Assembly (NCBI GenBank): GCA_045863195.1
Contig: BTUI01000009.1
Span: forward strand, 51,951 to 115,950
DNA length: 64,000 nt
Direction: 5' to 3'
Origin: Chloroflexota bacterium
GTDB taxonomy: Bacteria; Chloroflexota; Dehalococcoidia; UBA2979
Below the pieces are notes generated by a model that did no database searches, was not told where the DNA came from, and saw only the letters and a program-made list of their open reading frames with translations. Position 1 is the first letter of the stretch. Each line of letters starts with the position of its first letter. The position numbers and the translations under genes were made by a program. Of this stretch, positions 38,124 through 61,795 are shown piece by piece.

Positions 38124-38596
38124 CGCACCGCCTCCAGCACCCGCCGCACGATGCCGTTCTGGATCTCGCTCCGGGCTGCCTCCACGTCCCCGTCCGGCAG
38201 GTTCGTCAGATGCACCACCATCGCGCCGTCACGGGCGACCTCGAGCACGGTCGATCCGGGCGTCACGGTGATGAACGCGACCACGAGCACGCGCTCCAGG
38301 TCCGTCCGTGCGTCGGTGGGGAGGACGATGATCGCGGAGTGCAGTCGCGTCCCCCGGACCAGGTCACGCGTGACGCGCAGGTTGGCCCGCCACACGTCCA
38401 TGAGGAAGAACGCCGCCAGCGCGAGGATCGTCCAGGTCCGCCGGGAGTAGCCGGGCACGCCCGGCACGCTCCGCACGAGCGAGAGCGCGACGAAGCCGGC
38501 CACGAGCCCCGCGCCGAAGTTGAGCGGGGTGAACGATCCGGTGATCGCCGTCCACAGCAGGGCCAGCAGGATGTTGGCGATCGCGGCGTTGTTCAT
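38120..38596 (-). CDS. mrpE: Na+/H+ antiporter subunit E
   Basis: MNNAAIANILLALLWTAI..; 158 aa. ATGA overlap with mrpD. Confidence 0.8.
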   Translation of the reverse strand: MNNAAIANILLALLWTAITGSFTPLNFGAGLVAGFVALSLVRSVPGVPGYSRRTWTILALAAFFLMDVWRANLRVTRDLVRGTRLHSAIIVLPTDARTDLERVLVVAFITVTPGSTVLEVARDGAMVVHLTNLPDGDVEAARSEIQNGIVRRVLEAVR

Positions 38597-40080
38597 GGCG
38601 CGCGGCTCCCGAGGACGGCCTCGACGTACGCGGCGGGCGACGCGATCGCCGCCCCGGCCTCCACCGCCATCTCCACCAGTGGCGCGCCGACGATCCCCAT
38701 GCCGGCGCTCACCAGCGCGAGCGCCGCGCCCGGCAGCAGGAAGCGCCGCGCGGGCTGCTGCCACGTCTCGCCCTCCGGGGCGACCTTCCAGAACGCCTCG
38801 GTCCAGATCTTCACCATCGAGAGCAGCGTCAGCAGGCTCACCGCTAGCGAGACGCCGACGAGGAGCCACGCCTCCGACTCCACGCCGGCGCGCGCCAGCG
38901 TGAACTTCGCGATGAACCCGGCGAACGGCGGGATGCCGGCCAGCGCGAAGGCCGCGACGAGGAACACCGCCGCCGTTGGCGCGTCCTGCCGGTAGAGGCC
39001 ACCGAGGCGCCTCAACTGCCCTGTCCCTGCGCCGCGCTCGATGAACCCGGCCACCAGGAAGAGCGCGGTCTTCGTGATCATGTGCTGCATCATGTAGAAC
39101 GTCGCGCCGGCCAGCGCGAGCGGCGTCGTCAGGCCGATGCCCATCAGCATGTAGCCCACCTGGCTTGAGATGTGGAACGAGAGCAGCCGCCGCAGTTCGT
39201 ACTGCGCGAGCGCGCCCAGCACACCCACCACCATGGTGAGCCCGGCGATGACGAGCACGGCGGTGCGGACCGCCTCGTCGCCCGGGAAGAGCAACGTCAC
39301 CGTCCGCGCGACCGCGTATACGCCGACCTTCGTGAGCAAGCCGGAGAACAGCGCCGACACGTCCGTGCCGGGGGTGTGGTAGGAGGCCGGCAGCCACGCG
39401 GCGAACGGGAACGCCGCCGACTTCGTGATGAACGCGCCGAGGAGCAACAGCGCCAGCGCCAGCACCAGGGCGCGGTTCTCCACCAGCGCGAGGCGCTCGG
39501 ACAGGTCGGCGAAGTTCAGCGTCCCGGCGAGCGCGTACGCGAGGCCGGCGCCGACGAGGAAGGTGGCGGACGCGATCAGGTTCAGCGTCACGTACACCGC
39601 TGCCCCGCGCGCCTGCCTCGGTGCGTGGCCGACCGAGAGCAGGACGAAGGAGGCGATCAGCATCACCTCGAACGCCACATAGAGGTTGAACAGGTCGCCG
39701 GTCAGGAACGCCGCCGCCACCGCCGCGAGCAGGACGTTCGTGAAGACGAAGTAGCCGTGGCCCGACCGTTCGGCCTCCACGTGCATGGCGGCGAATGCGA
39801 GGGAGGCGAGGCCGGCGACGGCGCCCGCGAGCAGGACGAGCGCGGCGAACTGGTCGGCGACGAGCGAGATGCCGAACGGGGCGGGCCAGTCGCCGGCCTG
39901 CAGGACCAGCGTGCCGTGCGTGTTCACCTGCCGCAGGAGCATGACCGCGGCGAGCGTCTGCACGACCGCCCCTGCCAGCCCGGCCGCCACCTGCACGCGG
40001 TGGCGCGACATGAACGGGATCGCCGCCGCCGCGGCCACCAGCGGCCCGCCGAGGGCGAGGAGCAGCCATGTCCCGGTCAT
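38593..40080 (-). CDS. mrpD: Na+/H+ antiporter subunit D (NuoN/ND2-like)
   Basis: 495 aa, 14 TM, complex-I antiporter-like subunit. Confidence 0.85.
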   Translation of the reverse strand: MTGTWLLLALGGPLVAAAAAIPFMSRHRVQVAAGLAGAVVQTLAAVMLLRQVNTHGTLVLQAGDWPAPFGISLVADQFAALVLLAGAVAGLASLAFAAMHVEAERSGHGYFVFTNVLLAAVAAAFLTGDLFNLYVAFEVMLIASFVLLSVGHAPRQARGAAVYVTLNLIASATFLVGAGLAYALAGTLNFADLSERLALVENRALVLALALLLLGAFITKSAAFPFAAWLPASYHTPGTDVSALFSGLLTKVGVYAVARTVTLLFPGDEAVRTAVLVIAGLTMVVGVLGALAQYELRRLLSFHISSQVGYMLMGIGLTTPLALAGATFYMMQHMITKTALFLVAGFIERGAGTGQLRRLGGLYRQDAPTAAVFLVAAFALAGIPPFAGFIAKFTLARAGVESEAWLLVGVSLAVSLLTLLSMVKIWTEAFWKVAPEGETWQQPARRFLLPGAALALVSAGMGIVGAPLVEMAVEAGAAIASPAAYVEAVLGSRAP

Positions 40081-40433
40081 CGCGCGGCCTCCTCGGTGTC
40101 CGGGATCGCATCCACGTCGTCCGAGCCGGTGAGGCGGTACACGCGGTAGGAGAGCGTGATGAAGAACGCGAGCAGGCCGAAGCCGATCACGATCGCAGTC
40201 AGAATCAGCGCCTGCGGGACCGGATCGGCGGCGTCAGACGGCGGGATCACCTCGCCGGCCCGCACCAGCGGCGCGGGGCCGTCGCCGAGGCCGGCGGCGA
40301 CGAAGATGAACAGGTTCGCGGCGTTCGAGAGCAGCGCGAGGCCGATGATCGCCTGCCCGCGCGAGCGCTGCAGCAGGAGATAGATCGCGCACCCGAACAG
40401 CAGGCCAATGACCGGGGCGAAGAGCGCTTCCAT
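40077..40433 (-). CDS. mrpC: Na+/H+ antiporter subunit C (NuoK-like)
   Basis: [21 protein letters not shown]..; 118 aa. Confidence 0.8.
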   Translation of the reverse strand: MEALFAPVIGLLFGCAIYLLLQRSRGQAIIGLALLSNAANLFIFVAAGLGDGPAPLVRAGEVIPPSDAADPVPQALILTAIVIGFGLLAFFITLSYRVYRLTGSDDVDAIPDTEEAAR

Positions 40434-43135
40434 CAGCGCTCCTCCAGCAACGCCGTGGCCAGCGCACTCGCCACGCCCAGCACCACCAGCAGCACGCCGA
40501 GGTCGAAGATCACTGGCGTCCCCAGTTTCGCCTCGGTCCCGCCGAGGGTGGCGTACCACCAGGTGCCGGTGAAGATCGGGTCGCCGGACAGCATCGGGAT
40601 CAGCGCGCTCAGGAGGGCGATCAGCAGGCCCGCGCCGATCAGCGTTGCTGGGGAGACGCGCAGCAGGCGTCGGGCGGTCGCTGCGTCGTACGCGATCGCG
40701 TACAGCGCGATGCCGGCAGCGGCGACAAGGCCGGCGACGAAGCCGCCGCCCGGGTAGTCATGGCCTCGCCAGAACAGGAACAGCGAGAACAGCAGCAGAA
40801 CCGGGAGCGTCGCGCGGACCGCCGCCCGCAGGACGCCAGCCGAGGAGGTCGCGTCCCAGGTGGACGCGGACGGCCGCCCGGCCAGCCGCAGCAGCGCGAG
40901 GATGCCGAGCGCGGCGACGGCCAGCACCGTGATCTCGCCCATCGTGTCCAGCGCTCGGAAGTCCACGAGGATCGTGTTCACCACGTTCCGCCCCTTCGCC
41001 TCCGGGTAGGCGGCCGCATCGAAGAACTCGTGCAGCACCGGCGGCGCGGGCGTGACGCCGGCGGCGAGCGCGATCGTGGTCATTCCCACGCCGCCCGCGG
41101 CCGCGATCAGCACCGTCGCCCGCTGGCGGCGTGAACTCGTGGAGGGCGGGCGCAGCGGCAGGAACCGGAACGCGAAGATGAACAGGACCACCGTTAGCGT
41201 TTCCACCAGCACCTGCGTCATCGCCAGGTCGGGCGCGCCGAAGCGCATGAACGTCCACGTCATCCCGAACCCGGCCGCGCCCAGCGCCGCCACCGCCCGC
41301 AGACGCGAGGTAGAGGTGGCCGCCGCCAGCGCGCCGAGCGCGATCACCAGCGCTCCCGCCGCCGCCATCAGGTCGAATTCGGGCGTTAGCGAGACGTCGG
41401 CCAGCGCGGCGACGCCGAGGACGGCGAGCGGCACCGTCACGAGCAGCATCGTGGTCGCGATGTGCCCGGGGAGTGAGTCGTGTTGCACCGTCGCGGTCAG
41501 GCGGGCCGCGCCGGCGGCGAGGCCGTCGAGGATGCCGCCCGTCACCGCCTCGGAGCGGACGGGCAGCCACGGCAGGCGTCCCGCCTCGCGGTGGCGGAGC
41601 GCGAGGATCGCGCCGCCGGCGATGGCGACGGCGCTCATCGCCAGCACCCGGTCGAGGCCGGCCCACAGGTAGAGCGACACCTTCGCCGGCGCGCCGAACG
41701 CGGCCGACACCGCCGGCGCGATCGCGTCGCCCAGCCAGCCCGTGGCGAGCGGCCCGGCGGCGAGGCCCGCGACCGCGAGGAGTGCGGGTGGCCCCCACAG
41801 CGCGAGGGGGCCCTCGTGCGGGTGCTTCGGCGTCTCCGTGGGGCGGCCGAGGAACGGCGCGACGCCTGCGACGTAGGCGGCCACGAGGGTCAGCGCGCCC
41901 GCGACCACGACCGCCGCGACCGGCAGCCACGAGGCGGGCTGCGCGAAGCCCGCTGCCAGCGCCGTCTCCTTCGCGAGGAAGCCGATCGCCGGCGGCAGGC
42001 CCGCCATGGAGAACGCGGCCAGCCCGGCGGCGATGCCGAGGCGAGGCATGCTCACGAACAGCCCGCCGAGGGCGAGGCGGTCGCGCGTCCCCGTCTCGTG
42101 GTCGATCGCCCCGGCGACCATGAACAGCGCCGCCTTGTAGCAGGCGTGGGCGAGGATCGTGACGATGAGCGCCTTCATCGCCGCCTCGGTGCCGAGCCCG
42201 GCGAGGAAGATCATGGTGCCGAGCGCGCTGACCGTGCTGTAGGCGAGCACGCGCTTCAGGTCCGACTCGCGCACCGCGAGCACCGCGCCGAGCAACATCG
42301 TGACGCCGCCGGCGACCGGCAGGACCGCCTCCCACACCGCCACGTCACCGAGCGCGGGGTGCATCCGCGCGACCAGGTAGACGCCGAGTTTCACCATCGT
42401 CGCGGAGTGCAGGTACGCGGAGATCGGCGTCGGCGCGGCCATCGCGCCCGGGAGCCAGCCGTGGAACGGCCACTGGGCCGACTTCGTGAGCGCGCCGAGG
42501 AGCACGAGCACCGTGGCCGCCGTCACCAGTGCGGCATCCGCGCCCGCGACCGCCTCGCCGGTGATCGCGGAGAGGCGCGTCTCGCCGGTGATCCCGGTCA
42601 GCAGCACGAGGCCGCCGAGGAGCGCCAGCCCGCCCGCGCCGGTGATGAACAGCGCCTGGCGCGCCGCCTCGCGCGCCTCCTCCCGGTCGTGCGCGTAGCC
42701 GATGAGCAGGAACGAGGCGACCGAGGTCAGTTCCCAGCCGACGAACAGCAGCACGGCGTCGTCCGCGAGCACGGCGATGAGCATGCCGGCCTGGAAGAGC
42801 AGCAGCGGCGTGAACAGCCGCGCGAGGCGGGCGTCCGGGCCGAAGTAGCCCATCGCGTACCAGGCGATGAGCGCGCCGATGCCCGTGATGAGCAGCGCGA
42901 ACAGGAGCCCGAGGCCGTCCGCGCGCAGGGCCACCTCCCACCCCAGCGCTGGGACCCACGCCCGCGACCACTCCGCGACCTCGCCGTCCATCGCGCCCGG
43001 CACGAGCGAGGCGAGCCACGCGAAGGAGGCGGCGGAGAGCGCGAGCATCACCAGCGCCGATGCACGGCGCACGCCGGCCACTGCCGGGATGGCGGCGGCG
43101 GCGAGCAGCGGGGCGCAGGCGATCACGGCCAGCAT
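40433..43135 (-). CDS. mrpA: Na+/H+ antiporter subunit A with fused MrpB-like C-terminal domain (900 aa)
   Basis: NuoL-like N-terminal domain plus extra C-terminal TMs. No separate mrpB gene lies between mrpA and mrpC. Confidence 0.85.
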
Positions 43136-48052: not shown

Positions 48053-48568
48053 ATGGCGCGCATCGTGGTCGTTGGCGACACCCATGTCCGGTACTGGGAT
48101 GAGATCCCGGAGGCGCTCCGCGCGGCCATGCGCGAGGCGGACATCGCCGTGCACTGCGGCGACTGGGTCGGCATCGACGCCGTCGAAGGCTTCCTCCGCG
48201 AGCACCCCGGGGGCGTGGCCGTCCACGGCAACTCCGACCCGGTGGAGGTGCGCCAGCGGCTGCCGTACCGCGCGCTCTTCGAGGTAGATGGCGTGCGCAT
48301 CGGCGTGACGCACCCCGCGTGGGGGCGGGAAGAACCGCCACCGCCGGCGCTCTTCGGGGACTTCCCGGAGGTGGAGGAGGGCACCGTGGACATCATCTGC
48401 TACGGCCACATCCACGTGCCGATGAACGAGGTGCACCAGGGGGTGCGCTTTGTGAACGGCGGGCAGGGGTACCCCTCGTTCCGCGTCCCCGGTACCTACG
48501 CGCTGATCGAGACCGCCCCCGGCGGCCACTTCACCGTCTCGATCGAGGAGTTCGCGCCCGCCCGCTAG
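48053..48568 (+). CDS. metallophosphoesterase (YfcE/MJ0936-like)
   Basis: VVVGDTHV..; GDWV; ..CYGHIH.. Confidence 0.75.
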   Translation: MARIVVVGDTHVRYWDEIPEALRAAMREADIAVHCGDWVGIDAVEGFLREHPGGVAVHGNSDPVEVRQRLPYRALFEVDGVRIGVTHPAWGREEPPPPALFGDFPEVEEGTVDIICYGHIHVPMNEVHQGVRFVNGGQGYPSFRVPGTYALIETAPGGHFTVSIEEFAPAR

Positions 48569-49998
48569 CGCCCGGCAGCGATGGCCTCGGCGCGCCGCGC
48601 GATCCGTTCCGTCATACGGCCGAAGATGGCGGCGTGCACGGGGATGAGCGGGATCCAGTAGAGCAGTCCCAGGATGCCCGCCGGGTGGAAGTAGGCGGTG
48701 GTCGTCAGGCGCGATCCGCCGTCCGGCCTCGGCGTCACCTCGTACTCCAGCACGGCGGAGCCCGGCAACATCATCTCGGCGACCAGCGTGAGGCGCCGTC
48801 CCGGCTCCACACCCGCGACGCGCCACCAGTCGATGGCGTCGCCCACGCGCACCTCCGTCGGGTGCCGGCGTCCTCGGCGCATCCCCGTGCCGCCGATCAG
48901 CCGGTCGAGGATGCCGCGGGCGCGCCAGAGCGGGTTGAACGCGTACCAGCCGTTGCGCCCGCCCACGCCGGAGACCACGCCCCACAGCGCCTCTGCGCTG
49001 GCGGTGCAGTCGCGCGTCGCGCCCGCCCGTTTGGAGTAGAACGCCACGTCCGAGCGGTAGCCGCGGTAGAGCAGCGCCCCCTCCGTCCAGCGCGCCGGGA
49101 CCGCCTCCGCCCGCTCCGCCTCGATCGCCGCGGTCACCGCCTGGCGGTAGGTGTGGAGGGGGATCGGGATGAGCGCGCGGATCGCCGTGTCGTCCGCGAG
49201 CAGGTCGTGCTTCAGGCCGTCGATGAGCGGCTTCGCGATGTTCCTCGGCACGGCCGTGACGAGGTCGAGCCAGTAGGAGGAGATGCGGGGCGAGAGCACG
49301 GGGACGGGGATGATCGTCACCCGACGCCCGTTCACCTCCGCGAACTGCTTGATCATCGACTCGTACGACAGCACCTCCGGCCCGCCGACATCGAACGTGC
49401 CGCCCGCGGTGGACGGGGTGTCGAGCAGCCGCACGAGGTACGCGAGCAGGTCGCCGAGCGCGATCGGCTGCGTGCGCGAGCGTACCCAGCGGGGCGTGGT
49501 CATCACCCGCAGGTGCAGCGCCAGGTCGCGGATCACCTCGAACGCCGCGCTCCCGGCCCCCACGATGATGCCGGCGCGGATCTCGGTCACCGGGACCGGG
49601 CCGTCCCGCAGCACGTCGCCGGTCTCGGCGCGGGAGGAGAGGTGCTCGGAGGTGTCGCCGCCCGGCTGCAGCCCGCCGAGGTAGACGATCCGCTGCACGC
49701 CGGCGCGTTCCGCCGCCCGCCGGAAGTGGCGCGCAGCCTGCCGGTCCAGCCGCGCGAAGTCATGCCCCGCCGCCATGGAGTGGACCAGGTAGTACGCCAC
49801 CTCGATGCCCTCGAGCGCGGCGTCCAGCGACCCCTCGTCCTGCGCGTCCGCGGCGACGACCTCCACCCCCGCCCACCCGCGGGCGCGCAGCACCTCCGCG
49901 CGGCGCGCGCTCGCCCGCACCTCGTGCCCCGCGGCCGTGAGGTGCGGGACCAGGTGGGTGCCGATGTAGCCGCTGGCGCCGAAGACGAGCACGCGCAT
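48565..49998 (-). CDS. NAD(P)H-binding SDR/NmrA-like protein with C-terminal DUF2867 domain
   Basis: MRVLVFGASGYIGTHL Rossmann; 477 aa. Confidence 0.75.
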   Translation of the reverse strand: MRVLVFGASGYIGTHLVPHLTAAGHEVRASARRAEVLRARGWAGVEVVAADAQDEGSLDAALEGIEVAYYLVHSMAAGHDFARLDRQAARHFRRAAERAGVQRIVYLGGLQPGGDTSEHLSSRAETGDVLRDGPVPVTEIRAGIIVGAGSAAFEVIRDLALHLRVMTTPRWVRSRTQPIALGDLLAYLVRLLDTPSTAGGTFDVGGPEVLSYESMIKQFAEVNGRRVTIIPVPVLSPRISSYWLDLVTAVPRNIAKPLIDGLKHDLLADDTAIRALIPIPLHTYRQAVTAAIEAERAEAVPARWTEGALLYRGYRSDVAFYSKRAGATRDCTASAEALWGVVSGVGGRNGWYAFNPLWRARGILDRLIGGTGMRRGRRHPTEVRVGDAIDWWRVAGVEPGRRLTLVAEMMLPGSAVLEYEVTPRPDGGSRLTTTAYFHPAGILGLLYWIPLIPVHAAIFGRMTERIARRAEAIAAGR

Positions 49999-51142: not shown

Positions 51143-52111
51143 CTAGCGGCCGCCGGCGGCGTTCTCGATGAACGCCGCGACCTTCTGCAGAATGCCGTCC
51201 AGCCCGCCGCTCTGCGTGAGCGCAGGGCCGACCGGCGGCTCGGACCACTCGCGCCCGGCCTGGTCGCGCTTGAGGGGCGTCTCGTAGCCGTCCGTGATGC
51301 CGTAGGCGCGCGCGTACATGCGCGCCCGCACCACGTGGGCGGTGACGCTCCGCGGGTCGGGCAGGTGGTTCACATCGAACTGGTGGCCGGCCACGGCGTC
51401 CGCGAGATCGGACGGGAAGTTCCAGTGCAGCGCCAGCGCGCCGCCCAGTTCCGCGTCCGTGAAGCCGAGGACGGCCCGCTGCGCTTCCGCGATCGGGAGG
51501 CCGCGCTGCTGCGCGAGGATGCGAGAGGCGGCGAGTTCGCGCGGCCGCTGCTGGTCGAGCGCGAGCCGGCCGATGTTGTGGATGATGCCGGCGGTGAACG
51601 CCTCGTCCTGGTGCAACTTCGTCGCGCGCGCCATCACCTCCGCGAGCAGGCCGACCGTCACCGAGAAGCGCCACGCTTCCACCGGGTCCAGCACCTCGCC
51701 GCCCGGCAGCGTGTCGATGACGCACGAGGCGAGCGTGGCGGAACGCACGGCCCGGAAGCCGAGCAGCACCACGGCATCGCGGACGGTGGTGATGCGCCGC
51801 GGGAACCCGTAGTAGGCGCTGTTGGAGAGCCGGAGCACCTTCGCGGTCAGCGCCTGGTCGGTGGCGATGGCCTGCGCGAGTTCATGCGCTGAGAACCGCT
51901 CGCCCTCGGCGATTTCGAGGACGCGCACGGCGACCATCGGGAGGGGGCGCAGTTCCGCCACCTCCGCGATCACCAGGTCCAGGGCCGGGTTCGGCTCCAC
52001 CGGTCGCGCTCCACTCGCCCCTCGAACGACGGCATATGTCTTGTGTTCATCATCGGCGGGGCGGGCGAGTCCACGATGGGGGGAACCCTGACAGTTCCCG
52101 CACAAGTTCAC
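51143..52111 (-). CDS. HDOD-domain signalling protein
   Basis: ..LLAEVMARATKL..AGIIHNIGRLAL.. HDOD signature; start uncertain. Confidence 0.65.
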   Translation of the reverse strand: MNLCGNCQGSPHRGLARPADDEHKTYAVVRGASGARPVEPNPALDLVIAEVAELRPLPMVAVRVLEIAEGERFSAHELAQAIATDQALTAKVLRLSNSAYYGFPRRITTVRDAVVLLGFRAVRSATLASCVIDTLPGGEVLDPVEAWRFSVTVGLLAEVMARATKLHQDEAFTAGIIHNIGRLALDQQRPRELAASRILAQQRGLPIAEAQRAVLGFTDAELGGALALHWNFPSDLADAVAGHQFDVNHLPDPRSVTAHVVRARMYARAYGITDGYETPLKRDQAGREWSEPPVGPALTQSGGLDGILQKVAAFIENAAGGR

Positions 52112-52905: not shown

Positions 52906-54003
52906 CTAGCCCTGGCCGGTGCCGGCGGGCCTCCGCCGGATGTCGACGTAGGCCCACAGCGCGAGCGCGATCGCGAGCACCGCGAAGGTCGCGCGGATCG
53001 CGTCCGCGGCGCGCTCGCCCGCGCCCTCGGATGCGGTGGCGTCCACGTACAGGTAGAGGACATAGGCGGCGTAGAGGGCGATGAACAGCACGCCATTGAG
53101 GCGGGTGATGATGGAGCCCGTCATGAACACCGGCAGGCAGATCACCGCCACGCCGATCATCACGATGATGTCGACGTTGATCGCCGTCGCGGACACGGGG
53201 ATGCCGCCCTCCACCACCAGGCTGCTGGCGCCGACCACGGCGAGGATGTTGAAGATGTTGCTCCCAACGACGTTGCCGACGGCGATGTCGCGCTCGCCCC
53301 GGATGCTCGCGACGACCGAGGTCGCCAGTTCGGGCATCGACGTGCCTGCGGCCACCACCGTGAGCCCGATCACCAGTTCGCTCACGCCCAGCGCCTCAGC
53401 CGCTTCCGTCGCGCCGTCCACGAACCATCGTGAGCCGAGGATGAGCAGCCCGAGGCCGGCCGCGACACGGACCGCGTCGTAGGCGAGTTGCGAGGCCGAC
53501 CGGCGCTCCGCGCCGAACGCCTCGCCGTACTCGGCGGCGATCGCCTTCCCCTCGCGGCGGCTGGAGACGATCGCCCAGCCGGTGTAGGCGACGATGCCCG
53601 CGAACAGCAGCGCCCCCTCCAGCCGGCTCACCACCCCGCCGATCGACACCAGCAGGAGCGCCGCGGAGGCCGCGATCATGAGCGGCACGTCCAGGCGGAT
53701 GAGCTGGCTCGTCACCACCAGCGGCGCGACCACCGCCGAGACACCGAGGATGAACAGCACGTTGAAGATGTTGCTGCCCACCACGTTGCCGATCGCGACG
53801 TCCGCGCTTCCATCGAGCGCGGACGAGACGCTAACGGCGAACTCCGGTGCACTGGTGCCGAACGCGACGATCGTGAGCCCGACGACCAGCGGCGAGATGC
53901 CGAGCGTGGTAGCGATGCGGGACGCTCCCCGGACCAGCGCCTCCGCCCCCACCACCAGCAGCACCAGGCCGGCGACGAACAGAACCACCGTGAGCGGATC
54001 CAT
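52906..54003 (-). CDS. Ca2+/Na+ antiporter (CaCA family, YrbG-like)
   Basis: Two alpha-repeats GTSAPEF.. and GTSMPEL..; 365 aa. Confidence 0.9.
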   Translation of the reverse strand: MDPLTVVLFVAGLVLLVVGAEALVRGASRIATTLGISPLVVGLTIVAFGTSAPEFAVSVSSALDGSADVAIGNVVGSNIFNVLFILGVSAVVAPLVVTSQLIRLDVPLMIAASAALLLVSIGGVVSRLEGALLFAGIVAYTGWAIVSSRREGKAIAAEYGEAFGAERRSASQLAYDAVRVAAGLGLLILGSRWFVDGATEAAEALGVSELVIGLTVVAAGTSMPELATSVVASIRGERDIAVGNVVGSNIFNILAVVGASSLVVEGGIPVSATAINVDIIVMIGVAVICLPVFMTGSIITRLNGVLFIALYAAYVLYLYVDATASEGAGERAADAIRATFAVLAIALALWAYVDIRRRPAGTGQG

Positions 54004-54095
54004 GGGGGCGTGCGGCTTTCTCTAGAGGTGAGCAGACACGCCTATTCTCCGCCCGCGTGGAACTCCGCGCACTCGGCCTCCGGTTGCCGGGCGTG

Positions 54096-54136
54096 CTCGT
54101 GGCCCGGAGGGCGCTCAGCGCTCTCTGGGCCACGAG
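54096..54136 (-). terminator. 10-bp stem (CTCGTGGCCC/GGGCCACGAG) enclosing a second inner palindrome, 5 nt downstream of the copB stop
   Basis: Nested dyad symmetry read directly from the sequence. Confidence 0.35.
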
Positions 54137-54140
54137 CGCC

Positions 54141-56387
54141 TTACCGATCCGTGCCCGGCCGCAGGTCGAGCCGGCGGAGCAACTGGGCGTTCACGGCCAC
54201 GATGATCGTCGAAAGGCTCATGAACACCGCGCCGAGCGCCGGAGGCATGACGACCCCGGCCCAGGCCAGCGCGCCGGCCGCGAGCGGGATCGCCACCACG
54301 TTGTAGCCCGTCGCCCACGCCAGGTTCTGCACCATCTTGCGGTAGGAGGCCGCGGACAGCCGGATCACACCTACGACGGATCGCGGGTCGTCCGAGGCAA
54401 GCACGACACCCGCCGACTCGATCGCGACGTCCGTGCCCGCGCCGATCGCTAGGCCCACGTCCGCCTGTGCGAGCGCCGGCGCATCGTTGACGCCATCACC
54501 GACCATCGCCACTCGCAGACCGCGCCGCTGGAGGGCGACGACCTGCTCCGCCTTGTGCTCAGGGAGGACCTCCGCGAACACCTCGTCGATGCCGAGGTCG
54601 GCCGCGACCGCCTCCGCCACGCTGCGCGCGTCGCCGGTCACCATCGCGACCTTCACACCGAGCGCGTGGAGCGCCTCGACGGCCTCGCGCGACTTGGGGC
54701 GGACCTCGTCCTCCAGGGCGAGCGATCCGGCCACGCTGCCGTCACGCAGCAGGTAGAGCACGGTGGCACCACGGCGCTGCCACTGTGTAATCGCCGAGGC
54801 GGCACCGGCCGGGATCTCGATCGCCCGTTCGCGGAGCCGTCTCGGCCCCACGACCTCGACGTTTGCGCCCTCGACGATGCCGCGGACGCCCCGACCGGGG
54901 TCGGCGGCGAACGCCGACACCGGCGGGAGCGTGCCCGCGGCCCGGGCGCGCTCCACGATGGCGCGGGCGAGGGGGTGCTCCGATTCCGCCTCCACCGCTC
55001 CGGCGAGGCGGAGCATCCCCGCCTCGTCGCTGTCGGCTGCCCAGACCCCGGTCACCCGCGGACGGCCGAGGGTTAGTGTGCCGGTCTTGTCGAACAGCAC
55101 GATGTCCAGGCGCCGCGTCCGCTCCAGCGCCAGGCGGTCCTTCACCAGGATGCCGTTTCGCGCCGACACTTCCGTCGAGATCGCGATCACGAGCGGGATT
55201 GCAAGCCCCAGCGCATGAGGGCAGGCGATCACAAGCACCGTGACCGTGCGCGCGATCGCTTCGTCGACGTTGCCGAGGAGTGACCACGCGACGAACGTCA
55301 CGAGGCCAGCCCCAATGGCGACGTAGAAGAGCACCGCGGCCGCCCGGTCGGCGATCGCCTGCGCGCGCGAGCGTGACTGCTGCGCCTGCGCGACCAGGCG
55401 TTGGATGCCGGCGAGAGCCGTGTCGTCGCCGACCGCATCCACACGGACACGGACGGCCGAGCCGAGCGCGACCATGCCGGCAGCGACTCGGTCGCCCTGC
55501 TGGCGGAGTATCGGACGGGACTCGCCCGTGAGCATGGACTCATCGAAGTCGGCCTGTCCCGCCTCGACCGTCCCGTCCGCCGGCACCCGGCCGCCCGGCC
55601 GCACGAGCACCACGTCGCCGGCCTGCAGGTCCGCCAGCGACACGAGGCGCGTGGTGTCGCCCTCAATGCGCTCCGCCTCGTCGGGCAACAGTTCGGCGAG
55701 TGCCGCCAGCGCCCCCCGGGTCAGCCCCAGGGCGCGCATCTCCTGCCAGTGGCCGAGGAGCATCACGGTCACCAACGCCGCGAGTTCCCACCAGAAGTCG
55801 AGGTCAACCCAGCCAAACTCGTGCGCGACCGATGAGACAAACGCGACCGCGATCGCCAGCGAGATGAGCAACATCATCCCGGGCTGACGCAGCCTGACCT
55901 CGTCCCACCCGCCACGGAGGAACACCCGTCCGCCGTACAAGAACACCGCGGAGCCGAGGGCAGGTGAGACCAGTGCGTGTCCGGGCACCCGGGCGAGTGA
56001 GTATCCGAGCCAGTGCTGCACCATCTCGCTGAACGCAATGGCCGGAACCGTCAGGATCAGTGAGAGCCAGAACAGGCGTCGGAACGCCTCCGGGTCATGC
56101 CCGGCGTGCTTGTCATGCCCGCTGTGCGCGCCGTGACCGGCATGCTCCGGCTCCTGGTGGTGTTCACCGTGACTGCTGTGTGCCCCGTGAACCGGTGCCG
56201 GGTGGTGGCCGCCGTGCTCGCCGTGGCTCGCGTGCTCTGAGCTGCCAGCGGTGACGGCGGGCGCGTTCCCGGACCGTTCCGGCTCCACGTGGCAACCGCC
56301 CGATGCGGAGTGCCCATCGTGGTCGTGGGGCCCGTCACCGGTGCGGGGCGGAGCGGGATGCTTCGAGTGGTCGTGTGGCGCTGGCAT
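54141..56387 (-). CDS. copB: P1B-type heavy-metal ATPase, CopB-like (His-rich N-terminus, CPH motif)
   Basis: N-terminal H-rich metal-binding region (no CxxC HMA); TM6 IACPHALGLA; DKTGTLT; GDGVNDAPAL. Confidence 0.9.
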   Translation of the reverse strand: MPAPHDHSKHPAPPRTGDGPHDHDGHSASGGCHVEPERSGNAPAVTAGSSEHASHGEHGGHHPAPVHGAHSSHGEHHQEPEHAGHGAHSGHDKHAGHDPEAFRRLFWLSLILTVPAIAFSEMVQHWLGYSLARVPGHALVSPALGSAVFLYGGRVFLRGGWDEVRLRQPGMMLLISLAIAVAFVSSVAHEFGWVDLDFWWELAALVTVMLLGHWQEMRALGLTRGALAALAELLPDEAERIEGDTTRLVSLADLQAGDVVLVRPGGRVPADGTVEAGQADFDESMLTGESRPILRQQGDRVAAGMVALGSAVRVRVDAVGDDTALAGIQRLVAQAQQSRSRAQAIADRAAAVLFYVAIGAGLVTFVAWSLLGNVDEAIARTVTVLVIACPHALGLAIPLVIAISTEVSARNGILVKDRLALERTRRLDIVLFDKTGTLTLGRPRVTGVWAADSDEAGMLRLAGAVEAESEHPLARAIVERARAAGTLPPVSAFAADPGRGVRGIVEGANVEVVGPRRLRERAIEIPAGAASAITQWQRRGATVLYLLRDGSVAGSLALEDEVRPKSREAVEALHALGVKVAMVTGDARSVAEAVAADLGIDEVFAEVLPEHKAEQVVALQRRGLRVAMVGDGVNDAPALAQADVGLAIGAGTDVAIESAGVVLASDDPRSVVGVIRLSAASYRKMVQNLAWATGYNVVAIPLAAGALAWAGVVMPPALGAVFMSLSTIIVAVNAQLLRRLDLRPGTDR

Positions 56388-56444
56388 GCGTCGGCTCCTT
56401 TCGAGGACCTGTGTGCCTCTGTAGACGCAGCCGCCCCTACGGGA

Positions 56445-57011
56445 TTACACCGCCGGCGCCGTCTTGCAGGTGCAGTCGAGACAACCGTGGTCGGCGCAGA
56501 TGCGGCAGGTCGCCTCGAGCGACTCGCGCAGGGCGCGGCGAGCGCGGTGCCGCCGGACGTTCAGGTTGTTGACCGTCAGTCCCAACTCCCCGGCCACCTC
56601 CTGAGGCGACCGCTCATCGAGGTCGACCGCGGAGAGGACGGCGGCGTATTCGGGTCGGAGCGCCGGGAGCAGGTCCCGAAAGCACTCGCAGAGGGTGCGC
56701 TCGTCCGCTTCGGAGAGATCGGGGACGTCGTGGTTCTCCCCGAGACGCTCGGTTCGCCGCGCGTGGACGTCCTGCCGTCGGTACGTATCCACGATCGCAT
56801 TCCGGAGCACCCGGTAGAACCACGCCGCGAGCCGCTCCCCGTCCTCAATGTCTGGTGCAGATCGCAGGGCGCGCAGGAGCGCGTCCTGGAGGATGTCCTC
56901 GGCGAGGTCGGGATCCGCAATGCGGCGTCGGACGAACGCGAGGTACTGGCCGCGCGCCGCGCTGAGGGCTTCGGCGACCGGGGAGTGGGTATTGTGGTCG
57001 TGGACGGTCAC
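56445..57011 (-). CDS. ECF sigma factor with C-terminal Cys-rich extension (CorE-like)
   Basis: Sigma2/sigma4 regions followed by TLCECF...TCRICADHGCLDCTCK. GTG start. Lies directly upstream of copB on the same strand. Confidence 0.7.
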   Translation of the reverse strand: MTVHDHNTHSPVAEALSAARGQYLAFVRRRIADPDLAEDILQDALLRALRSAPDIEDGERLAAWFYRVLRNAIVDTYRRQDVHARRTERLGENHDVPDLSEADERTLCECFRDLLPALRPEYAAVLSAVDLDERSPQEVAGELGLTVNNLNVRRHRARRALRESLEATCRICADHGCLDCTCKTAPAV

Positions 57012-57052
57012 CGGTCGACCTGATCCGCTTCCGTGGCTCGCCTGGCCTCGCG

Positions 57053-57487
57053 CTACTTCTCGCGGGCGGCGGCCTGCGCGGCGGCGAGCTGCTTGCGGAG
57101 GTCTCGGAGTTCGTTGAACGTCTCCGTCGCGTCGCGCAGCACGGCCACGGCGAGGAGGCCGTGCTCCGGGTGCTGCACCATCTGCAGGGTGAACTCCACG
57201 GAGACGCGCGAACCATCCTTGCGGAGCGCCGGCACCTTCAGCATCTCGCGACGGCCATACCGGGACGGCTGCCCGTCCACCATCACCCGGTCGTAGCCCT
57301 CCCAGTGCCGCGCTCGGAGGTTCTCCGGGATGATCAGGTCCAGGCTCTGGCCCAGTGCTTCCTCGGCCGTAAAGCCGAGGACCTCGTGCGCCGCCTCGTT
57401 CCAGTAGCGGATGATCCCGTCCGCGCCGGCCCAGACGGTCGCCTCGGGCGATCCGTCCATGATCGTGCGGTAGATGTCGTCGGACAT
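57053..57487 (-). CDS. stand-alone PAS domain protein
   Basis: ..AGADGIIRYWNEAAHEVLGFTAEEALGQSLDLIIP..; 144 aa. Confidence 0.75.
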   Translation of the reverse strand: MSDDIYRTIMDGSPEATVWAGADGIIRYWNEAAHEVLGFTAEEALGQSLDLIIPENLRARHWEGYDRVMVDGQPSRYGRREMLKVPALRKDGSRVSVEFTLQMVQHPEHGLLAVAVLRDATETFNELRDLRKQLAAAQAAAREK

Positions 57488-57547
57488 GGCGCGCTCCCTC
57501 CGTGCCCGGCCAGCCTACGCCACGAGGCAACTCGCCTGGGCGAGGGG

Positions 57548-58213
57548 CTAGTGGGTGAACGCGCCGTAGTGGTAGGCGTTGCACACGCCACACAGGCCGT
57601 GGCTCGTGTTCGCCGGTGAGATGTGGACCCATCGAGGGACCCAGTCCCACCGCTCGACCTCGGATTCCCCGCGCTGGAACCGCACCCGCCGGCAGTGCGC
57701 GCACTGGATCACCTGTCCGTGCTCGTTCCGGTACGCCTCCTCCACCTGCGGTGGGACCTCCACCGCCGCGCCTGGCGGCGACTCGCAGGCCGCGAGCAGG
57801 GAGTTCACGACCAGGACGCCGCGTCCGTCCAGCAGGCCGTACACGGTCATGCGGAAGATGCGCGTGACGGTCGGACTGGAGCATTCGTACGTGTGCGACC
57901 AGGGCTGGCCGGACTCGCGGGCCCACTCCATGCCCTCCCGGTAGAAGCGGTCGAGGACGGGAGGGATCGCCCGCCAGAGGTTCGACTCGAGCGCGCCTTC
58001 CTCGCCAAGGTCGGGGTCGCCGTTCTCCCGAGCGAAGGTGCGCCACGCCTCGTTGACGTAGCCCAGGCGTCCATCCGACCAGGCGCCGTAGATCACGTTG
58101 GCGGAGCGGTCCAGGTCGTCCAGGTCGAACGCCGCGAGGAGCGGTGCGAACTCAGGGTCGAGGTGCATCGGGCCGCCTCCATGCCGCATGACACGCCCGT
58201 CCGGCGTCACCAT
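57548..58213 (-). CDS. PAS-like protein with C-terminal CxxC...CxxC zinc ribbon
   Basis: ..NVIYGAWSDGRLGYVNEAWRTF.. PAS-like block; CAHCRRV...CGVC. Confidence 0.45.
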   Translation of the reverse strand: MVTPDGRVMRHGGGPMHLDPEFAPLLAAFDLDDLDRSANVIYGAWSDGRLGYVNEAWRTFARENGDPDLGEEGALESNLWRAIPPVLDRFYREGMEWARESGQPWSHTYECSSPTVTRIFRMTVYGLLDGRGVLVVNSLLAACESPPGAAVEVPPQVEEAYRNEHGQVIQCAHCRRVRFQRGESEVERWDWVPRWVHISPANTSHGLCGVCNAYHYGAFTH

Positions 58214-58251
58214 AGCGGCCGGATGGGGAGGTGGCACATGATTCGAGGCGG

Positions 58252-59076
58252 TCACGCCTCGGGCGGGAGTCCCGGGCGGATGAGGCGGTCGTACAGGAGG
58301 CCGCCGGCGAGCCCGCCGATGAGCGGCCCCGCGAGGTAGACCCAGAAGCCGCCACGCGGGCCGGGGATCGCGATCTCGCCCCACCCCGCCGCGAGCGCGA
58401 CGAGCCTTGGCCCGAGGTCGCGCGCCGGATTCCACCCGGCCTGTGTCGCGGGCGCGAACAGGCTGATGAGTACGGCCACCGTGAAGCCGATGAAGAACGG
58501 GGCGAGCCACTTCGGCCGGACGCCGTTCCGGGGCTCGGTCAGGGCGAAGATCATGCACACCAGCACAGCCGTCCCGAACGCCTCGATGCCTGCGGCCATC
58601 AGCGGGGAGACCAGTGCTTCCGCCTCCGGCCCCGTGCCGAAGATCGCCGGGTTCGGGAAGTACTCGCCGAAGACCATCGCGGAGCGCTCGGAGCCGGGCG
58701 CGCCGCGCTCGATCCCCTCGGCGGCCTCGAACCGCTCGATGAACGGGTGGAAGGTGGCGAGGACGACCGCGCCCGCGAGCGCCGCGCCCGCGAGTTGCGC
58801 TCCCCAGTAGGGAAGGACGCGCGACCTCGGGAAGGTGTCCGGTCGCAGGACGGCGACAGCGAGCGTCACCGCCGGGTTCAGGTGCGCTCCGGACACGGCG
58901 GCGGTCGCGTAGATCGCGAGCGTGACGCCGAAGCCCCAGACCACGGCCACCTGCCAGAGGCCGACCTGGGCGCCGGTCACCACCGCGGCGGCGACTGACC
59001 CGGTGCCGAACAACACCAGCAGGAAGGTTCCGACGACCTCCGCGGTGCAGGCGCGTGCGAGCGAGGTCGAGGTCAC
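58252..59076 (-). CDS. MIP-family aquaglyceroporin (AqpS/GlpF-like)
   Basis: Two NPA boxes (HLNPAV, NPARD). The GTG start forms a GTGA overlap with the upstream arsC-like stop. Confidence 0.85.
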   Translation of the reverse strand: MTSTSLARACTAEVVGTFLLVLFGTGSVAAAVVTGAQVGLWQVAVVWGFGVTLAIYATAAVSGAHLNPAVTLAVAVLRPDTFPRSRVLPYWGAQLAGAALAGAVVLATFHPFIERFEAAEGIERGAPGSERSAMVFGEYFPNPAIFGTGPEAEALVSPLMAAGIEAFGTAVLVCMIFALTEPRNGVRPKWLAPFFIGFTVAVLISLFAPATQAGWNPARDLGPRLVALAAGWGEIAIPGPRGGFWVYLAGPLIGGLAGGLLYDRLIRPGLPPEA

Positions 59077-59714
59077 CGGCCCACCGGCTGGTGCGACTCG
59101 ACCGCGATCCCGAGTTCCGCGAGCAGCCACATGACGCGGTCGCGGATCTCGTCACGGATGCGGCGCACCACCTCGATCCCCTGTCCGGCCGGGTCGTCTA
59201 GTTCCCAGTCCAGGTAGCGCTTACCGGGGTAGATGGTGCACGCGTCGCCGCAGCCCATGGTGATCACCACGTCCGCCGCCTCCACGAGTTCGTCCGTGAG
59301 CGGCTTTGGGAACTCCTGGTCGAGCGAGAGCCCGAGCTCCGCCATCGCCTCGCGCACCACGGGGTTGATCTCCCACGCCGGCGCGGAGCCGGCGGAGCGG
59401 ACGTGCACCCGGTCGCCGCCAAGGGCCGCCGTCAGAACCGCCGCCATCTGCGACCGGCCCGCATTGTGGACGCAGACGAACAGGACTTCCGGGACGTCCT
59501 TCCGGATCGTGCCGCGGGCCTGTGCCAGCGCCGTCAGGCGCTCGCGCGCCGTGCGCCGCGCGAAGAGCGGCACGAACGCGTCGATGCGCGCTCGGGCGAA
59601 GTGCTCCGTCGCCTGCTCCATGTACCGCAGCACGGTCTCGCGGCTCACCTGGCCGGCGAACTCCGCCGCCAGCAGTTCCGCTTCGTGCCGCAGTCGCTCG
59701 TCACGGTCGTCCAT
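59073..59714 (-). CDS. arsC: LMW-PTP-family arsenate reductase (Trx-coupled ArsC type) with about 75-aa N-terminal helical extension
   Basis: P-loop CVHNAGRS; second/third Cys in TMGCGDAC; 213 aa. Confidence 0.7.
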   Translation of the reverse strand: MDDRDERLRHEAELLAAEFAGQVSRETVLRYMEQATEHFARARIDAFVPLFARRTARERLTALAQARGTIRKDVPEVLFVCVHNAGRSQMAAVLTAALGGDRVHVRSAGSAPAWEINPVVREAMAELGLSLDQEFPKPLTDELVEAADVVITMGCGDACTIYPGKRYLDWELDDPAGQGIEVVRRIRDEIRDRVMWLLAELGIAVESHQPVGR

Positions 59715-59715
59715 C

Positions 59716-60420
59716 TCACTCCCCCGCCTGCGGCACGCGGTGCCGCGTCCGTGGCCGCACGTGCTGGGCGAGCGTGCTGACACGCGCTTCCAGCCGGTGC
59801 AGCGCCGCTTCGAAGTCCTCCGGTCGCCCGCCCGCCGCCGGGTCAGGCACCGACCAGTGCAGGTCCGCCGGGGGCGCGCCGCGTTCCTCGTGCGCCTGGT
59901 CGCACACCGTGACCACGAGGTCACCGGGACGCGCGACCGCACCGAGTTCGGCCGGGGCGTGGTCGAGGTCCAGGCCGGCGCGCTCCGCCGTCGCGCGTGC
60001 CAGCGGATGCACCTCGGGCGCCGGGTGCGTGCCGGCGCTCGCGACGCCGACGGCGGCGCCGGAGCGACGCCAGAGCGCCTCCGCCAGCGGCGAGCGCGCC
60101 GAGTTCGCCGTGCAGACAAAGAGCACCCGGTCTGCCTCCAGCGGCGCGCCCCGCTCCGGCAGCATCGCGCGTCCCGCCTCGGTCAGCACGAGGTAGCGAC
60201 GGCGATGGTCGCCCGCGGAGACGCGGCGCTCGATGAGCCCGGCCGCCTCCAGGGTGCGGAGGTGGTGGGCGAGCAGGTTGGACGGCACCGCCAACGCCGC
60301 TTCCACCTCGGACGGGGCGAGGTCGGTGAGCGCGAGCGCCTCGACGATCGCCAGCCGGAGCGGTTCGCCGAGGGCGGCGTGCGCGGCCGCGCGGGCCGTG
60401 AGGGCGGCGGTGAACTCCAT
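59716..60420 (-). CDS. arsR: ArsR-family HTH regulator fused to an LMW-PTP/ArsC-like domain
   Basis: N-terminus LRLAIVEAL..LLAHHLRTLEAAGLIERR (ArsR wHTH); C-terminus VLFVCTANSARS (CX5R P-loop) and VTVCDQAHEE. Confidence 0.75.
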   Translation of the reverse strand: MEFTAALTARAAAHAALGEPLRLAIVEALALTDLAPSEVEAALAVPSNLLAHHLRTLEAAGLIERRVSAGDHRRRYLVLTEAGRAMLPERGAPLEADRVLFVCTANSARSPLAEALWRRSGAAVGVASAGTHPAPEVHPLARATAERAGLDLDHAPAELGAVARPGDLVVTVCDQAHEERGAPPADLHWSVPDPAAGGRPEDFEAALHRLEARVSTLAQHVRPRTRHRVPQAGE

Positions 60421-60434
60421 GCGGCGAGGCTAGT

Positions 60435-60448
60435 ATCTCGCAAGAGAT
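60435..60448. promoter_or_regulatory. dyad ATCTC-GCAA-GAGAT in the AT-rich arsR / ferredoxin divergent region (candidate ArsR operator)
   Basis: Seen in the sequence, 15 nt upstream of the arsR start. Confidence 0.3.
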
Positions 60449-60598
60449 TGAGTCAAGATGTATCGAGTGATAGCACGCCAGCCGAGGGGCGCACGCCCCC
60501 GCTGCCGAGGGGCATTAGACCTCGGGCGGGAGTCTCGGTAGGATTCTGCCGGACTCTGCCCCGACGGCGCGTGCCGTCCGCGCGGAAAGGCTCAGCGC

Positions 60599-61795
60599 GT
60601 GGCGTTCGTCATTACCGAGACCTGCATCGACACGCGGGACCAGGCGTGTGTGGACGTTTGCCCGGTGGATTGCATCCACTTCGAAGATGGCAAAGACCGC
60701 ATGCTCTACATCAACCCTGCGGAATGCATCGACTGCGGGGCGTGCCAGCCGGCCTGCCCCGTCAGCGCGATCTTCCCGGAGGGTGACGTCCCGGCGAACC
60801 TGAACCGGTTCATCGAGATCAACTCGCTCTGGTACGAGAACGCGGACGCCGCCCGCGCCAAGGTCGGCGGTGGCGGTGGTGCCGCCGCGCCGGCCGCTGC
60901 TCCGGCGGCCGCGCCCGCCGAGGGCGGTGAAGCGCCGGCCGAGGCCCCCGCTGCTGCGGAGGCCGCGCCCGTTGCCGCTGCCGCCGCGCCCGCGGCCCCG
61001 GCCGCGAAGGCCGCCCCGGTGGCGGCGGTACAGCAGGTGCCCGCGGTTCCGGTCGGAAGCCACGGCGGCGTCCAGGCCTCGAAGTACCGCCTCCCGAAGG
61101 CGACCGGTGTCGCCTCCCTCGCCGCGTTCGCGGCGGCGGTGTATGTGATGTTCGTCTTCCCCGGCCCAACCTGGATCGAACTGTCCTGGGCGGAGGGGTT
61201 GTTCAAGGCGATCGGCATCGACAACGGTGGCGGCGTGGGCATCACGGTGGCGCTGCTGCTGCCGCTGGCGCCGCTGCTGCTCCTCGTCCACCTCGCGATC
61301 CAGTTCGGCGACTTCAACAAGTTCGCCGCCTCGCACGAGCGCAACCTCGCCAAGTGGCGGGCGCGCGGCCCGCAGTGGCGGCGCAACGAGGAGTCCCGCC
61401 GCTACCTGCTCGCGGAGACGGTCGCCGCGATCGCCAAGGACCGCTTCGACTACACGCCCGAGGTCGGCGTGAAGACGTACGTGAACCTCCCGGAGCCCCA
61501 GATGGGCGTGGAGGTCCGCGGCACGGGCGACAAGGTCTTCCCGGACATCGTTACGCTGCGCCCCGGCAACCAGCCGGTCGCCATCGTGCAGGTGGAGACG
61601 AAGGAGACGGTCACGCGCGACCAGGCGGCGTACGTCTGGGCGATGCTGGAGAACCGCACCTGCCCGCTCTACATTTACGTCCCCGCCGGCATGCTCCGCC
61701 GCGCGAAGGACTACGCGAAGGCGGTCGGGCTGAAGAACGTGAAGTTCCGCACCTGGCGCTGGAGCCCCAACGGCATGGTCGTGAAGGAGGCGTAG
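60599..61795 (+). CDS. 7Fe (FdxA-type) ferredoxin domain fused via Ala/Pro-rich linker and a TM segment to a C-terminal PD-(D/E)xK-like domain
   Basis: N-terminus CIDTRDQACVDVCPVDCI...CIDCGACQPACP (3Fe-4S/4Fe-4S pattern); linker AAAPAAAPAAAPAEGG..; TM helices; C-terminus ..PDIVTLRPGNQPVAIVQVETKE.. (PD...ExK). Confidence 0.6.
   Translation: MAFVITETCIDTRDQACVDVCPVDCIHFEDGKDRMLYINPAECIDCGACQPACPVSAIFPEGDVPANLNRFIEINSLWYENADAARAKVGGGGGAAAPAAAPAAAPAEGGEAPAEAPAAAEAAPVAAAAAPAAPAAKAAPVAAVQQVPAVPVGSHGGVQASKYRLPKATGVASLAAFAAAVYVMFVFPGPTWIELSWAEGLFKAIGIDNGGGVGITVALLLPLAPLLLLVHLAIQFGDFNKFAASHERNLAKWRARGPQWRRNEESRRYLLAETVAAIAKDRFDYTPEVGVKTYVNLPEPQMGVEVRGTGDKVFPDIVTLRPGNQPVAIVQVETKETVTRDQAAYVWAMLENRTCPLYIYVPAGMLRRAKDYAKAVGLKNVKFRTWRWSPNGMVVKEA

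Follow-up and report, generated by a model that had tools for sequence, protein, structure and literature searches.

We found that a 64-kb stretch of contig BTUI01000009.1 from a Chloroflexota bacterium (64,000 nucleotides; hereafter the window) contains a compact gene cluster that reads as an arsenate-detoxification operon, and this arsenic reading is well supported by homology. Five genes are packed tightly on the minus strand (57053-60420). In minus-strand order they are arsR::LMWP, which encodes an ArsR-type regulator fused to a low-molecular-weight protein tyrosine phosphatase (LMW-PTP, or LMWP) domain; an arsC1'-type gene for a second LMW-PTP protein; a gene for a channel from the family of major intrinsic proteins (MIPs); a gene for a protein with a PAS fold and four C-terminal cysteines (PAS/Cys4); and a gene for a stand-alone PAS protein (Table 1). 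The window is 72% GC, and the in-frame GC content at third codon positions (GC3) is 0.91-0.93 for all five genes. A first-pass annotation of this DNA had described the order, strand, spacing and domains of the genes, and the coordinates of the open reading frames (ORFs) and the Pfam matches to HTH_20, LMWPc and MIP agree with that description, apart from the start of the PAS/Cys4 gene.

The first three genes are linked closely. A single base (59715) separates the stop codon of arsR::LMWP from ATG 59714 of the arsC1'-type gene, and the TGA of the arsC1'-type gene (59075-59073) overlaps GTG 59076 of the MIP gene in the sequence GTGA. Judged from the sequence, arsR::LMWP and the arsC1'-type gene are adjacent and translationally coupled, and the GTGA overlap would couple translation of the MIP gene to that of arsC1'. 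The cluster had been noted as lacking an ArsB or Acr3 pump gene, and we found none in the 64 kb, by tblastn or by checking multi-transmembrane proteins. There were no tblastn matches to Acr3, ArsP, ArsA or ArsM within the window. We considered the large membrane ORFs of the window as possible ArsB proteins and rejected them: by Pfam they are Mrp subunits and an M50 protease, and the only other multi-transmembrane proteins are a CaCA exchanger and a P1B ATPase. We also saw no glycerol kinase or other glp gene beside the MIP gene among the window ORFs and their Pfam matches.

Table 1. Genes and predicted regulatory sites of the cluster, in positions of the window
Feature	Position	Strand	Description
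arsR::LMWP ('arsRC')	59716..60420 (ATG 60420 to TGA 59716)	-	234 aa; winged-helix ArsR-type domain plus ArsC-like LMW-PTP domain
arsC1'-type arsenate reductase, thioredoxin-coupled class (predicted)	59073..59714 (ATG 59714 to TGA 59073)	-	213 aa; three-helix N-terminal domain plus LMW-PTP fold
GlpF-like MIP channel	58252..59076 (GTG 59076)	-	274 aa; Pfam MIP 6e-48; probable As(OH)3 exit
Operator of ArsR::LMWP, predicted	60437..60467	.	two (C)TCA-N8-TGA(G) inverted repeats sharing the central base; + strand CTCGCAAGAGATTGAGTCAAGATGTATCGAG
Promoter, predicted	60427..60456	-	-35 TTGACT 60456-60451, 18-nt spacer, -10 TAGCCT 60432-60427, 6 nt to ATG 60420
Operator candidate of the first-pass annotation, ATCTC-N4-GAGAT	60435..60448	.	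14 nt from ATG; right arm includes the conserved operator's 3' GAG half-site
PAS-fold protein with C-terminal Cys4 (CxHC...CxxC)	57548..58168	-	206 aa; follower of the operon in this lineage
Stand-alone PAS protein	57053..57487	-	144 aa; Pfam PAS 7e-12, TIGR00229 1.4e-19

The product of the second gene is of a known enzyme type, with a predicted activity as a thioredoxin-coupled arsenate reductase. It has a Phosphatase-like_N domain (residues 8-64) followed by an LMWPc domain (residues 77-196). The N-terminal extension is PF21234 Phosphatase-like_N (40.4 bits, cut-off 27), the same three-helix bundle dimerisation domain as NF046112 (39.9, cut-off 25). The protein matches Cg_ArsC1' of Corynebacterium glutamicum (PDB 3T38, 213 aa) over its full length (E 2.8e-55, residues 12-198), and the entry title that Foldseek gives for 3T38 is thioredoxin-dependent arsenate reductase. 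The catalytic cysteines of Cg_ArsC1' are C88, C162 and C166 (PMC6514093), and C81, C155 and C159 of the window protein align with them. That is, the nucleophilic cysteine is present in a P-loop, C81-VHNAG-R87-S88, that aligns with the P-loop of 3T38, and the downstream pair G-C155-GDA-C159, on which an assignment as arsenate reductase depends, lines up with GCGDVC of 3T38. The protein also has the LDDP general-acid motif. The LMWP domains of this protein and of the fusion are only 36.5% identical.

The third gene encodes a channel that is probably the exit for As(OH)3, as its relatives and position suggest. The protein is identical to an NCBI entry named 'aquaporin'. Its best solved relative is Escherichia coli GlpF (PDB 1FX8), which it matches over the full length (E 7.9e-48). 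Bit scores were 167 for GlpF, 105 for AQP3, 65 for NIP2-1, 63 for AqpM and about 47-52 for AqpZ; thus the channel does not group with strict water channels. It has both NPA motifs (NPAV and NPARD), and the Asp after the second NPAR is the aquaglyceroporin signature. Because the protein is nearest to GlpF and has NPA and NPARD, we take it not to be a strict water channel. At the positions of GlpF W48, G191, F200 and R206 the aromatic/arginine (ar/R) filter is W/I/A/R and not the W-G-F-R of GlpF, and there is a Trp at the position of GlpF M202. Across the nearest 120 cluster representatives (71-100% identity), these filter residues do not vary, apart from A or G at the third. Plant NIP-I channels, a group that conducts arsenite, have a W-V/I-A-R filter; for this channel that is a lead and not a test. 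In four relatives' loci (L001, L081, L084 and L092), a member of the same MIP subfamily follows arsRC-arsC; in a fifth (L094), one follows two LMWP genes. In locus L093, a 73%-identical member (5001-5825) lies between genes for a pstSCAB-like phosphate ABC transporter and phoU. There, the channel type is linked to phosphate/arsenate uptake genes and not to arsC.

The first gene encodes a protein that, from its domains and conserved residues, is probably both the repressor and the arsenic sensor of the operon. An identical protein is in NCBI, from a Chloroflexota metagenome-assembled genome (MAG). Pfam places HTH_20 at residues 17-66 (30.5 bits, cut-off 27) and LMWPc at residues 99-217, both above cut-off, and HTH_5 also matches (24.5 bits, cut-off 22). 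The score to NF033788 is 37.2, below its cut-off of 55. In an AlphaFold2 (AF2) model (predicted local distance difference test score (pLDDT) 92, predicted template modelling score (pTM) 0.87), alpha1-alpha4 and the beta-wing are visible. In PDB sequence and Foldseek searches, no solved structure matched the two-domain build of helix-turn-helix (HTH) plus LMWP.

The cysteines of the fusion set it apart from both of its parent families. We aligned the 120 best relatives of the fusion; C103, N106, R109, S110, C173, D174, W189 and D193 are invariant, and so are the motifs C103-x5-R109-S110 (the P-loop), C173-D174 and H188-W189. Exactly two cysteines, C103 and C173, are found in 98 of the 120. The HTH part contains a cysteine in 8 of them, and the window protein has none in residues 1-95, so that it lacks the As(III)-binding cysteine cluster expected in an ArsR fold. 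The fused domain also lacks the full Cys10/Cys82/Cys89 triad of the thioredoxin-coupled ArsC of the pI258 type. The position of Cys89 is Leu in 87 of the 120 relatives and Arg in the window protein; a further cysteine between C173 and H188 occurs in one relative, and an equivalent of Cys89 is absent from the other 119. A disulfide like C103-C173 is possible without a third cysteine, since PDB 1LK0 is, by its entry title, the Cys10-Cys82 disulfide intermediate of C89L ArsC. Because the ArsR part is free of cysteine and the fused part keeps the P-loop, C103 and C173, the fused LMWP domain is most likely the sensor. The first-pass annotation had suggested that the fusion and the second reductase might be sensor and catalytic paralogues, and this idea fits the cysteine patterns of the two sequences.

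The region upstream of arsR::LMWP contains what is probably the operator bound by the fusion, as indicated by a motif conserved across the family. We aligned the regions upstream of 83 fusion genes and derived a symmetric consensus, CTCA-N8-TGAsTCA-N8-TGAG. Its core, TGAsTCA, is present in 56 of the 83 regions, whereas segments picked at random from those loci gave 1.3 +/- 1.2. In the 64 kb, CTC-N9-TGAsTCA-N9-GAG has one match, at the predicted operator and with 0 mismatches (0.14 expected by chance), and TTGAsTCAA also has one match (0.05 expected). A conserved operator fits the recognition helix of the fusion, in which PSNLLAHH is nearly invariant and N48-L49-x-A51-H52-H53 is invariant among the relatives. 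A full-text literature search for the operator core sequence returned unrelated papers only.

A different operator, ATCTC-GCAA-GAGAT, had been proposed for this spacer. The repeat is present, and the spacer is indeed AT-rich (43% GC at 60427-60470 versus 72% for the window). As an operator, we reject it: repeats as good as this one occur 3.1 times per 178 bp in the window and 1.6 times in shuffled sequence, and the repeat is not conserved in an 86%-identical relative (L081).

The central palindrome of the operator coincides with a putative -35 sequence, TTGACT. A scan of 56300-60700 for strict sigma-70 promoters and terminators found nothing, and the proposed promoter rests on conservation: L081 and L084 have TTGAsT and TA(G/T)CCT at conserved distances from the ATG, with a different spacer sequence between them. 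There is no Shine-Dalgarno sequence before ATG 60420. Together with TTGACT and with TAGCCT 6 nt before the ATG, this points to a probable leaderless or near-leaderless transcript. In many Actinomycetota, among them L012, L014, L016, L028, L038 and L063, the last half of the operator runs into the start codon (TTGAsTCAATG). A repressor bound there would overlap the start of a leaderless mRNA, versus the -35 sequence in the window.

The pairing of a regulator-reductase fusion with a second, N-terminally extended reductase had been called unusual. It is not. We counted genes within 3 kb of the fusion, by tblastn, in the 80 best species-level loci that contain one. A second LMW-PTP gene was present in 64 of the 80 loci. 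The long ArsC1' type was found in 38, in 26 of these directly downstream of the fusion; the other 42 had no ArsC1'-type partner, and many of them had a short ArsC or none. MIP genes were found in 45 loci, Acr3 in only 6, and the full trio of fusion, ArsC1' and MIP in 22. In addition, the N-terminal extension is a catalogued domain (PF21234/NF046112) with a solved structure (3T38). Other ars genes that recur around the fusion are arsM, arsA, arsP, acr3, arsO-like and arsI-like genes and GNAT genes. The family itself is large: among 8000 scored candidates there were 4909 matches to the HTH+LMWPc fusion at E <= 1e-3, and at least 588 relatives were confirmed in species-representative genomes, mostly of Actinomycetota and some of Dehalococcoidia. 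The 120 best relatives are 211-376 aa long, and all but three have both domains in the precomputed Pfam list. By these counts, Actinomycetota and Chloroflexota commonly combine the fusion with a second reductase and a MIP channel and do so without a pump.

The channels that accompany the fusion are of two kinds. Those of actinobacteria belong to another subfamily, which is very divergent. Its members have about 240-260 aa and NPV/NPA motifs, lack an Arg immediately behind the second NPA and reach only E 2e-8 with their best PDB match; they gave only local BLAST matches to the window MIP. This subfamily usually flanks the fusion in loci L002-L080 (for example, L062 1326-2120, L047 617-1399 and L063 6179-6931). 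Two unrelated MIP subfamilies beside the fusion indicate two independent recruitments to the same module.

From the gene structure, the homologies, the conserved residues and the conserved operator motif observed here, we infer an arsenate-specific detoxification operon with a channel as exit and a fused repressor, and we assign this reading a probability of about 0.68. It reaches beyond those observations in the activity of the enzyme, the permeability of the channel, the binding of DNA and, above all, the sensing step. Arsenate enters cells as an analogue of phosphate. The ArsC1'-type enzyme would reduce it, with C81 attacking, C155 and C159 resolving the intermediate and thioredoxin recycling the enzyme. 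As(OH)3 would then leave down its own gradient through the GlpF-like channel, with no need for ArsB or Acr3, as proposed for AqpS. The winged helix of ArsR::LMWP would bind the 31-bp double palindrome and so overlap the -35 sequence of the leaderless promoter. On turnover of arsenate, a disulfide between C103 and C173 (or bound As(III)) would remain, and the resulting change in the protein would release the DNA.

Several points weigh against this reading. A channel gives no protection from external arsenite, and an acr3 or arsB gene may be present elsewhere in the MAG. Since the filter differs from that of GlpF, permeability is not simply transferable from GlpF, and members of the same MIP subfamily are also found away from ars genes, in an unrelated context in L091 and beside pst/phoU in L093. 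At the usual place of the dimerisation helix alpha5, the AF2 monomer model of the fusion has only a short helix (81-85), which makes its dimerisation and mode of DNA binding uncertain. The outer half-sites of the window operator (CTCG and CGAG) each match the consensus at only 3 of 4 positions. In addition, in the searchable literature we found no ArsR-ArsC fusion for which functional experiments are described.

It is possible, and we propose it tentatively, that ArsR::LMWP represents a large class of As(V) sensors: a single turnover would form the C103-C173 disulfide, no third cysteine would be there to hand it on to thioredoxin, and the repressor would come off the 31-bp palindrome. An equally tentative part of this proposal is that the reductase-derived domain would do the work that an As(III)-thiolate site usually does in ArsR. 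If true, sensing of As(V) would match a channel-based system that is able to handle arsenate only. Alternatively, the operon may have the same function while the fused domain is a second working reductase, or C103 and C173 form an As(III) site, with arsenite as the inducer. An active enzyme would keep the P-loop, the nucleophilic cysteine, one resolving cysteine and the general-acid Asp, all of which are invariant; two thiols are able to bind As(III), and classical ArsR proteins respond to As(III). However, the fusion has only two cysteines, and the known As(III) sites of ArsR proteins use three thiolates. As an enzyme, the fusion has no equivalent of Cys89 for hand-over to thioredoxin, and it would be redundant because 64 of 80 loci have another gene, for a complete reductase, no more than 3 kb away. 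We therefore regard this alternative as unlikely.

Two further alternatives are much less likely. The first-pass annotation had also raised the idea of a redox relay, in which the fusion and ArsC1' would exchange disulfides and the regulator would read the oxidation state of the reductase and not arsenic. The two genes are neighbours here, apparently with coupled translation, as well as in 26 of 80 loci, and the LMWP domains of both proteins have redox-active cysteines. However, the two domains share little more than a third of their residues, and the partnership is not obligatory because 42 of 80 loci have no ArsC1' within 3 kb; we consider a relay very improbable. Finally, the cluster could have nothing to do with arsenic: a channel for a solute such as glycerol would stand beside two phosphatases of protein Tyr/Arg, of which one is joined to a transcription factor. 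The LMWP fold is common to protein phosphatases, YwlE is the top fold match of the fusion model (E 6.6e-9, level with the ArsC matches), and the MIP is nearest to GlpF and has some relatives that are not linked to ars genes. In contrast, the second protein matches a characterised arsenate reductase (E 2.8e-55) and has its catalytic cysteine triad, and the fusion keeps an equivalent of the ArsC-specific Cys82 with HW-x2-DP about 20 residues later, which protein phosphatases lack. In addition, no glp gene was seen next to the MIP gene, and ars genes abound in the neighbourhoods of relatives. We give this alternative hardly any weight, and we keep the arsenate-detoxification operon as our reading of the cluster.

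Since the arrangement is widespread, its real interest lies only in how a fused regulator with two cysteines senses arsenic, and the operator makes this question directly testable. The family is very large and is dominated by the two-cysteine design (98/120), with a DNA-binding part mostly free of cysteine. A clear operator shared across the family makes experiments on binding and induction easy to design. Should the fused domain prove to sense arsenate, the known regulators would gain one that answers to As(V) itself, of use also in biosensors specific for arsenic speciation.

Downstream of the MIP gene, the two PAS genes are treated here as lineage-specific neighbours of the operon. They follow the MIP gene in L081 and L084 and are absent from L001, L092 and L094. 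The PAS/Cys4 protein had been given a start 38 nt past the MIP stop (ATG 58213). The true start is probably ATG 58168 (MHLDPEF) instead. Homologues start there, as do the genes called in two relatives, and the codon has GGAGG 7 nt upstream; it leaves a gap of 83 nt after the MIP stop. The protein has no Pfam or NCBIfam match. In its AF2 model (pLDDT 86), the N-terminal ~130 aa match PAS domains (NifL 2GJ3, PYP and others) with E down to 3.8e-5 and probability 1.0. Its invariant residues are C96, in a YECSSP strand, C156-x-H158-C159 and C193-x2-C196. A word-index search had suggested a tiny family of 17; an exhaustive profile search overturned this, with at least 621 cluster representatives at E <= 1e-30 and 2160 at <= 1e-10. 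We rejected PAS/Cys4 as a part of the arsenic system; in other phyla it is not next to ars genes, and it is missing from the three loci named above.

On the other side of the cluster, a divergent gene (60599-61795, plus strand) encodes a 398-aa protein whose N-terminus is of the FdxA type, 2x[4Fe-4S]; an Ala/Pro-rich linker joins it to a long C-terminal part that is not ferredoxin and has about 2 predicted transmembrane segments. This gene is a conserved divergent neighbour of arsRC in L001, L081 and L084. Conserved TTAGAC (60515-60520) and TAGGAT (60539-60544), separated by an 18-nt spacer on the plus strand (60515-60544), look like its promoter. Beyond the PAS genes, 52906-57011 (minus strand) encodes an extracytoplasmic function (ECF) sigma factor that resembles SigZ and has a C-terminus rich in Cys, a P1B ATPase whose long N-terminus is rich in His, and a Ca/Na antiporter. 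This block separates the PAS gene from an HDOD gene (51143-52111) and an NmrA/DUF2867 gene (48565-49998). It looks like an insertion here or a loss elsewhere, because only one or two small unannotated genes separate the ars cluster from the HDOD and NmrA genes in L084 and L094. Further away, 38593-43135 (minus strand) contains genes for an Mrp-type antiporter, including a 900-aa fused MnhA/MbhD/MbhE/MnhB-like subunit, with no relation to the ars cluster.

Compared with known systems, this is an ordinary ars cluster of an uncultured bacterium, and relatives of all its parts have been described, namely ArsC1', AqpS-like channels and ArsR-ArsC fusions. Like the window protein, Cg_ArsC1' (PDB 3T38) has 213 aa and a three-helix N-terminal domain followed by an LMW-PTP domain, and the two have in common the P-loop CVHNAGRS, the GCGDxC pair and LDWEL(D/A)DP. 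Cg_ArsC1' is reported to be expressed constitutively, beside the mycothiol-type ArsC1/2 and an Acr3 pump (PMC6514093). In contrast, the window gene stands second in a regulated operon, which has a MIP and lacks a pump.

Reviews have noted ArsR-ArsC fusions in Leptospirillum, Microbacterium and Sinorhizobium, and in a network study such fusions came out as ArsC clusters of their own across actinobacterial genera (PMC6205960, PMC6514093). Those with names are ArsRC2 of Microbacterium sp. A33, ArsRC of Leptospirillum ferriphilum and clusters C4/C7 of the network of actinobacterial ArsC proteins (PMC6205960, PMC6514093). By their descriptions, they share the HTH plus LMWP architecture with the window protein, which is from Chloroflexota. 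In the searchable literature we found no function reported for these fusions.

For the channel, E. coli GlpF has in common with the window MIP both NPA motifs and NPARD and differs in the filter, as described above. A parallel in operon context is arsR-aqpS-arsC-arsH of Sinorhizobium meliloti, in which an aquaglyceroporin replaces ArsB/Acr3; arsenate is reduced inside the cell and As(III) runs out downhill (PMC6205960). The first-pass annotation had drawn this parallel, and homology supports its view of an arsenic-type cluster with an aquaglyceroporin-like channel. As in AqpS-type systems, the window MIP gene lies inside an ars operon beside arsC and without ArsB/Acr3, a likeness in operon context. 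The S. meliloti operon differs in being proteobacterial and in having a separate ArsR and arsH, whereas the regulator in the window is a Cys-free ArsR fused to LMWP. Another parallel is that of the AqpS-ArsC fusions of Salinispora and Frankia (Wu, Song and Beitz 2010). According to a review (PMC6205960), these couple a MIP to an LMWP reductase for arsenate resistance in high-GC Gram-positives. There, channel and reductase are single polypeptides; in the window they are encoded by separate genes that appear to be translationally coupled.

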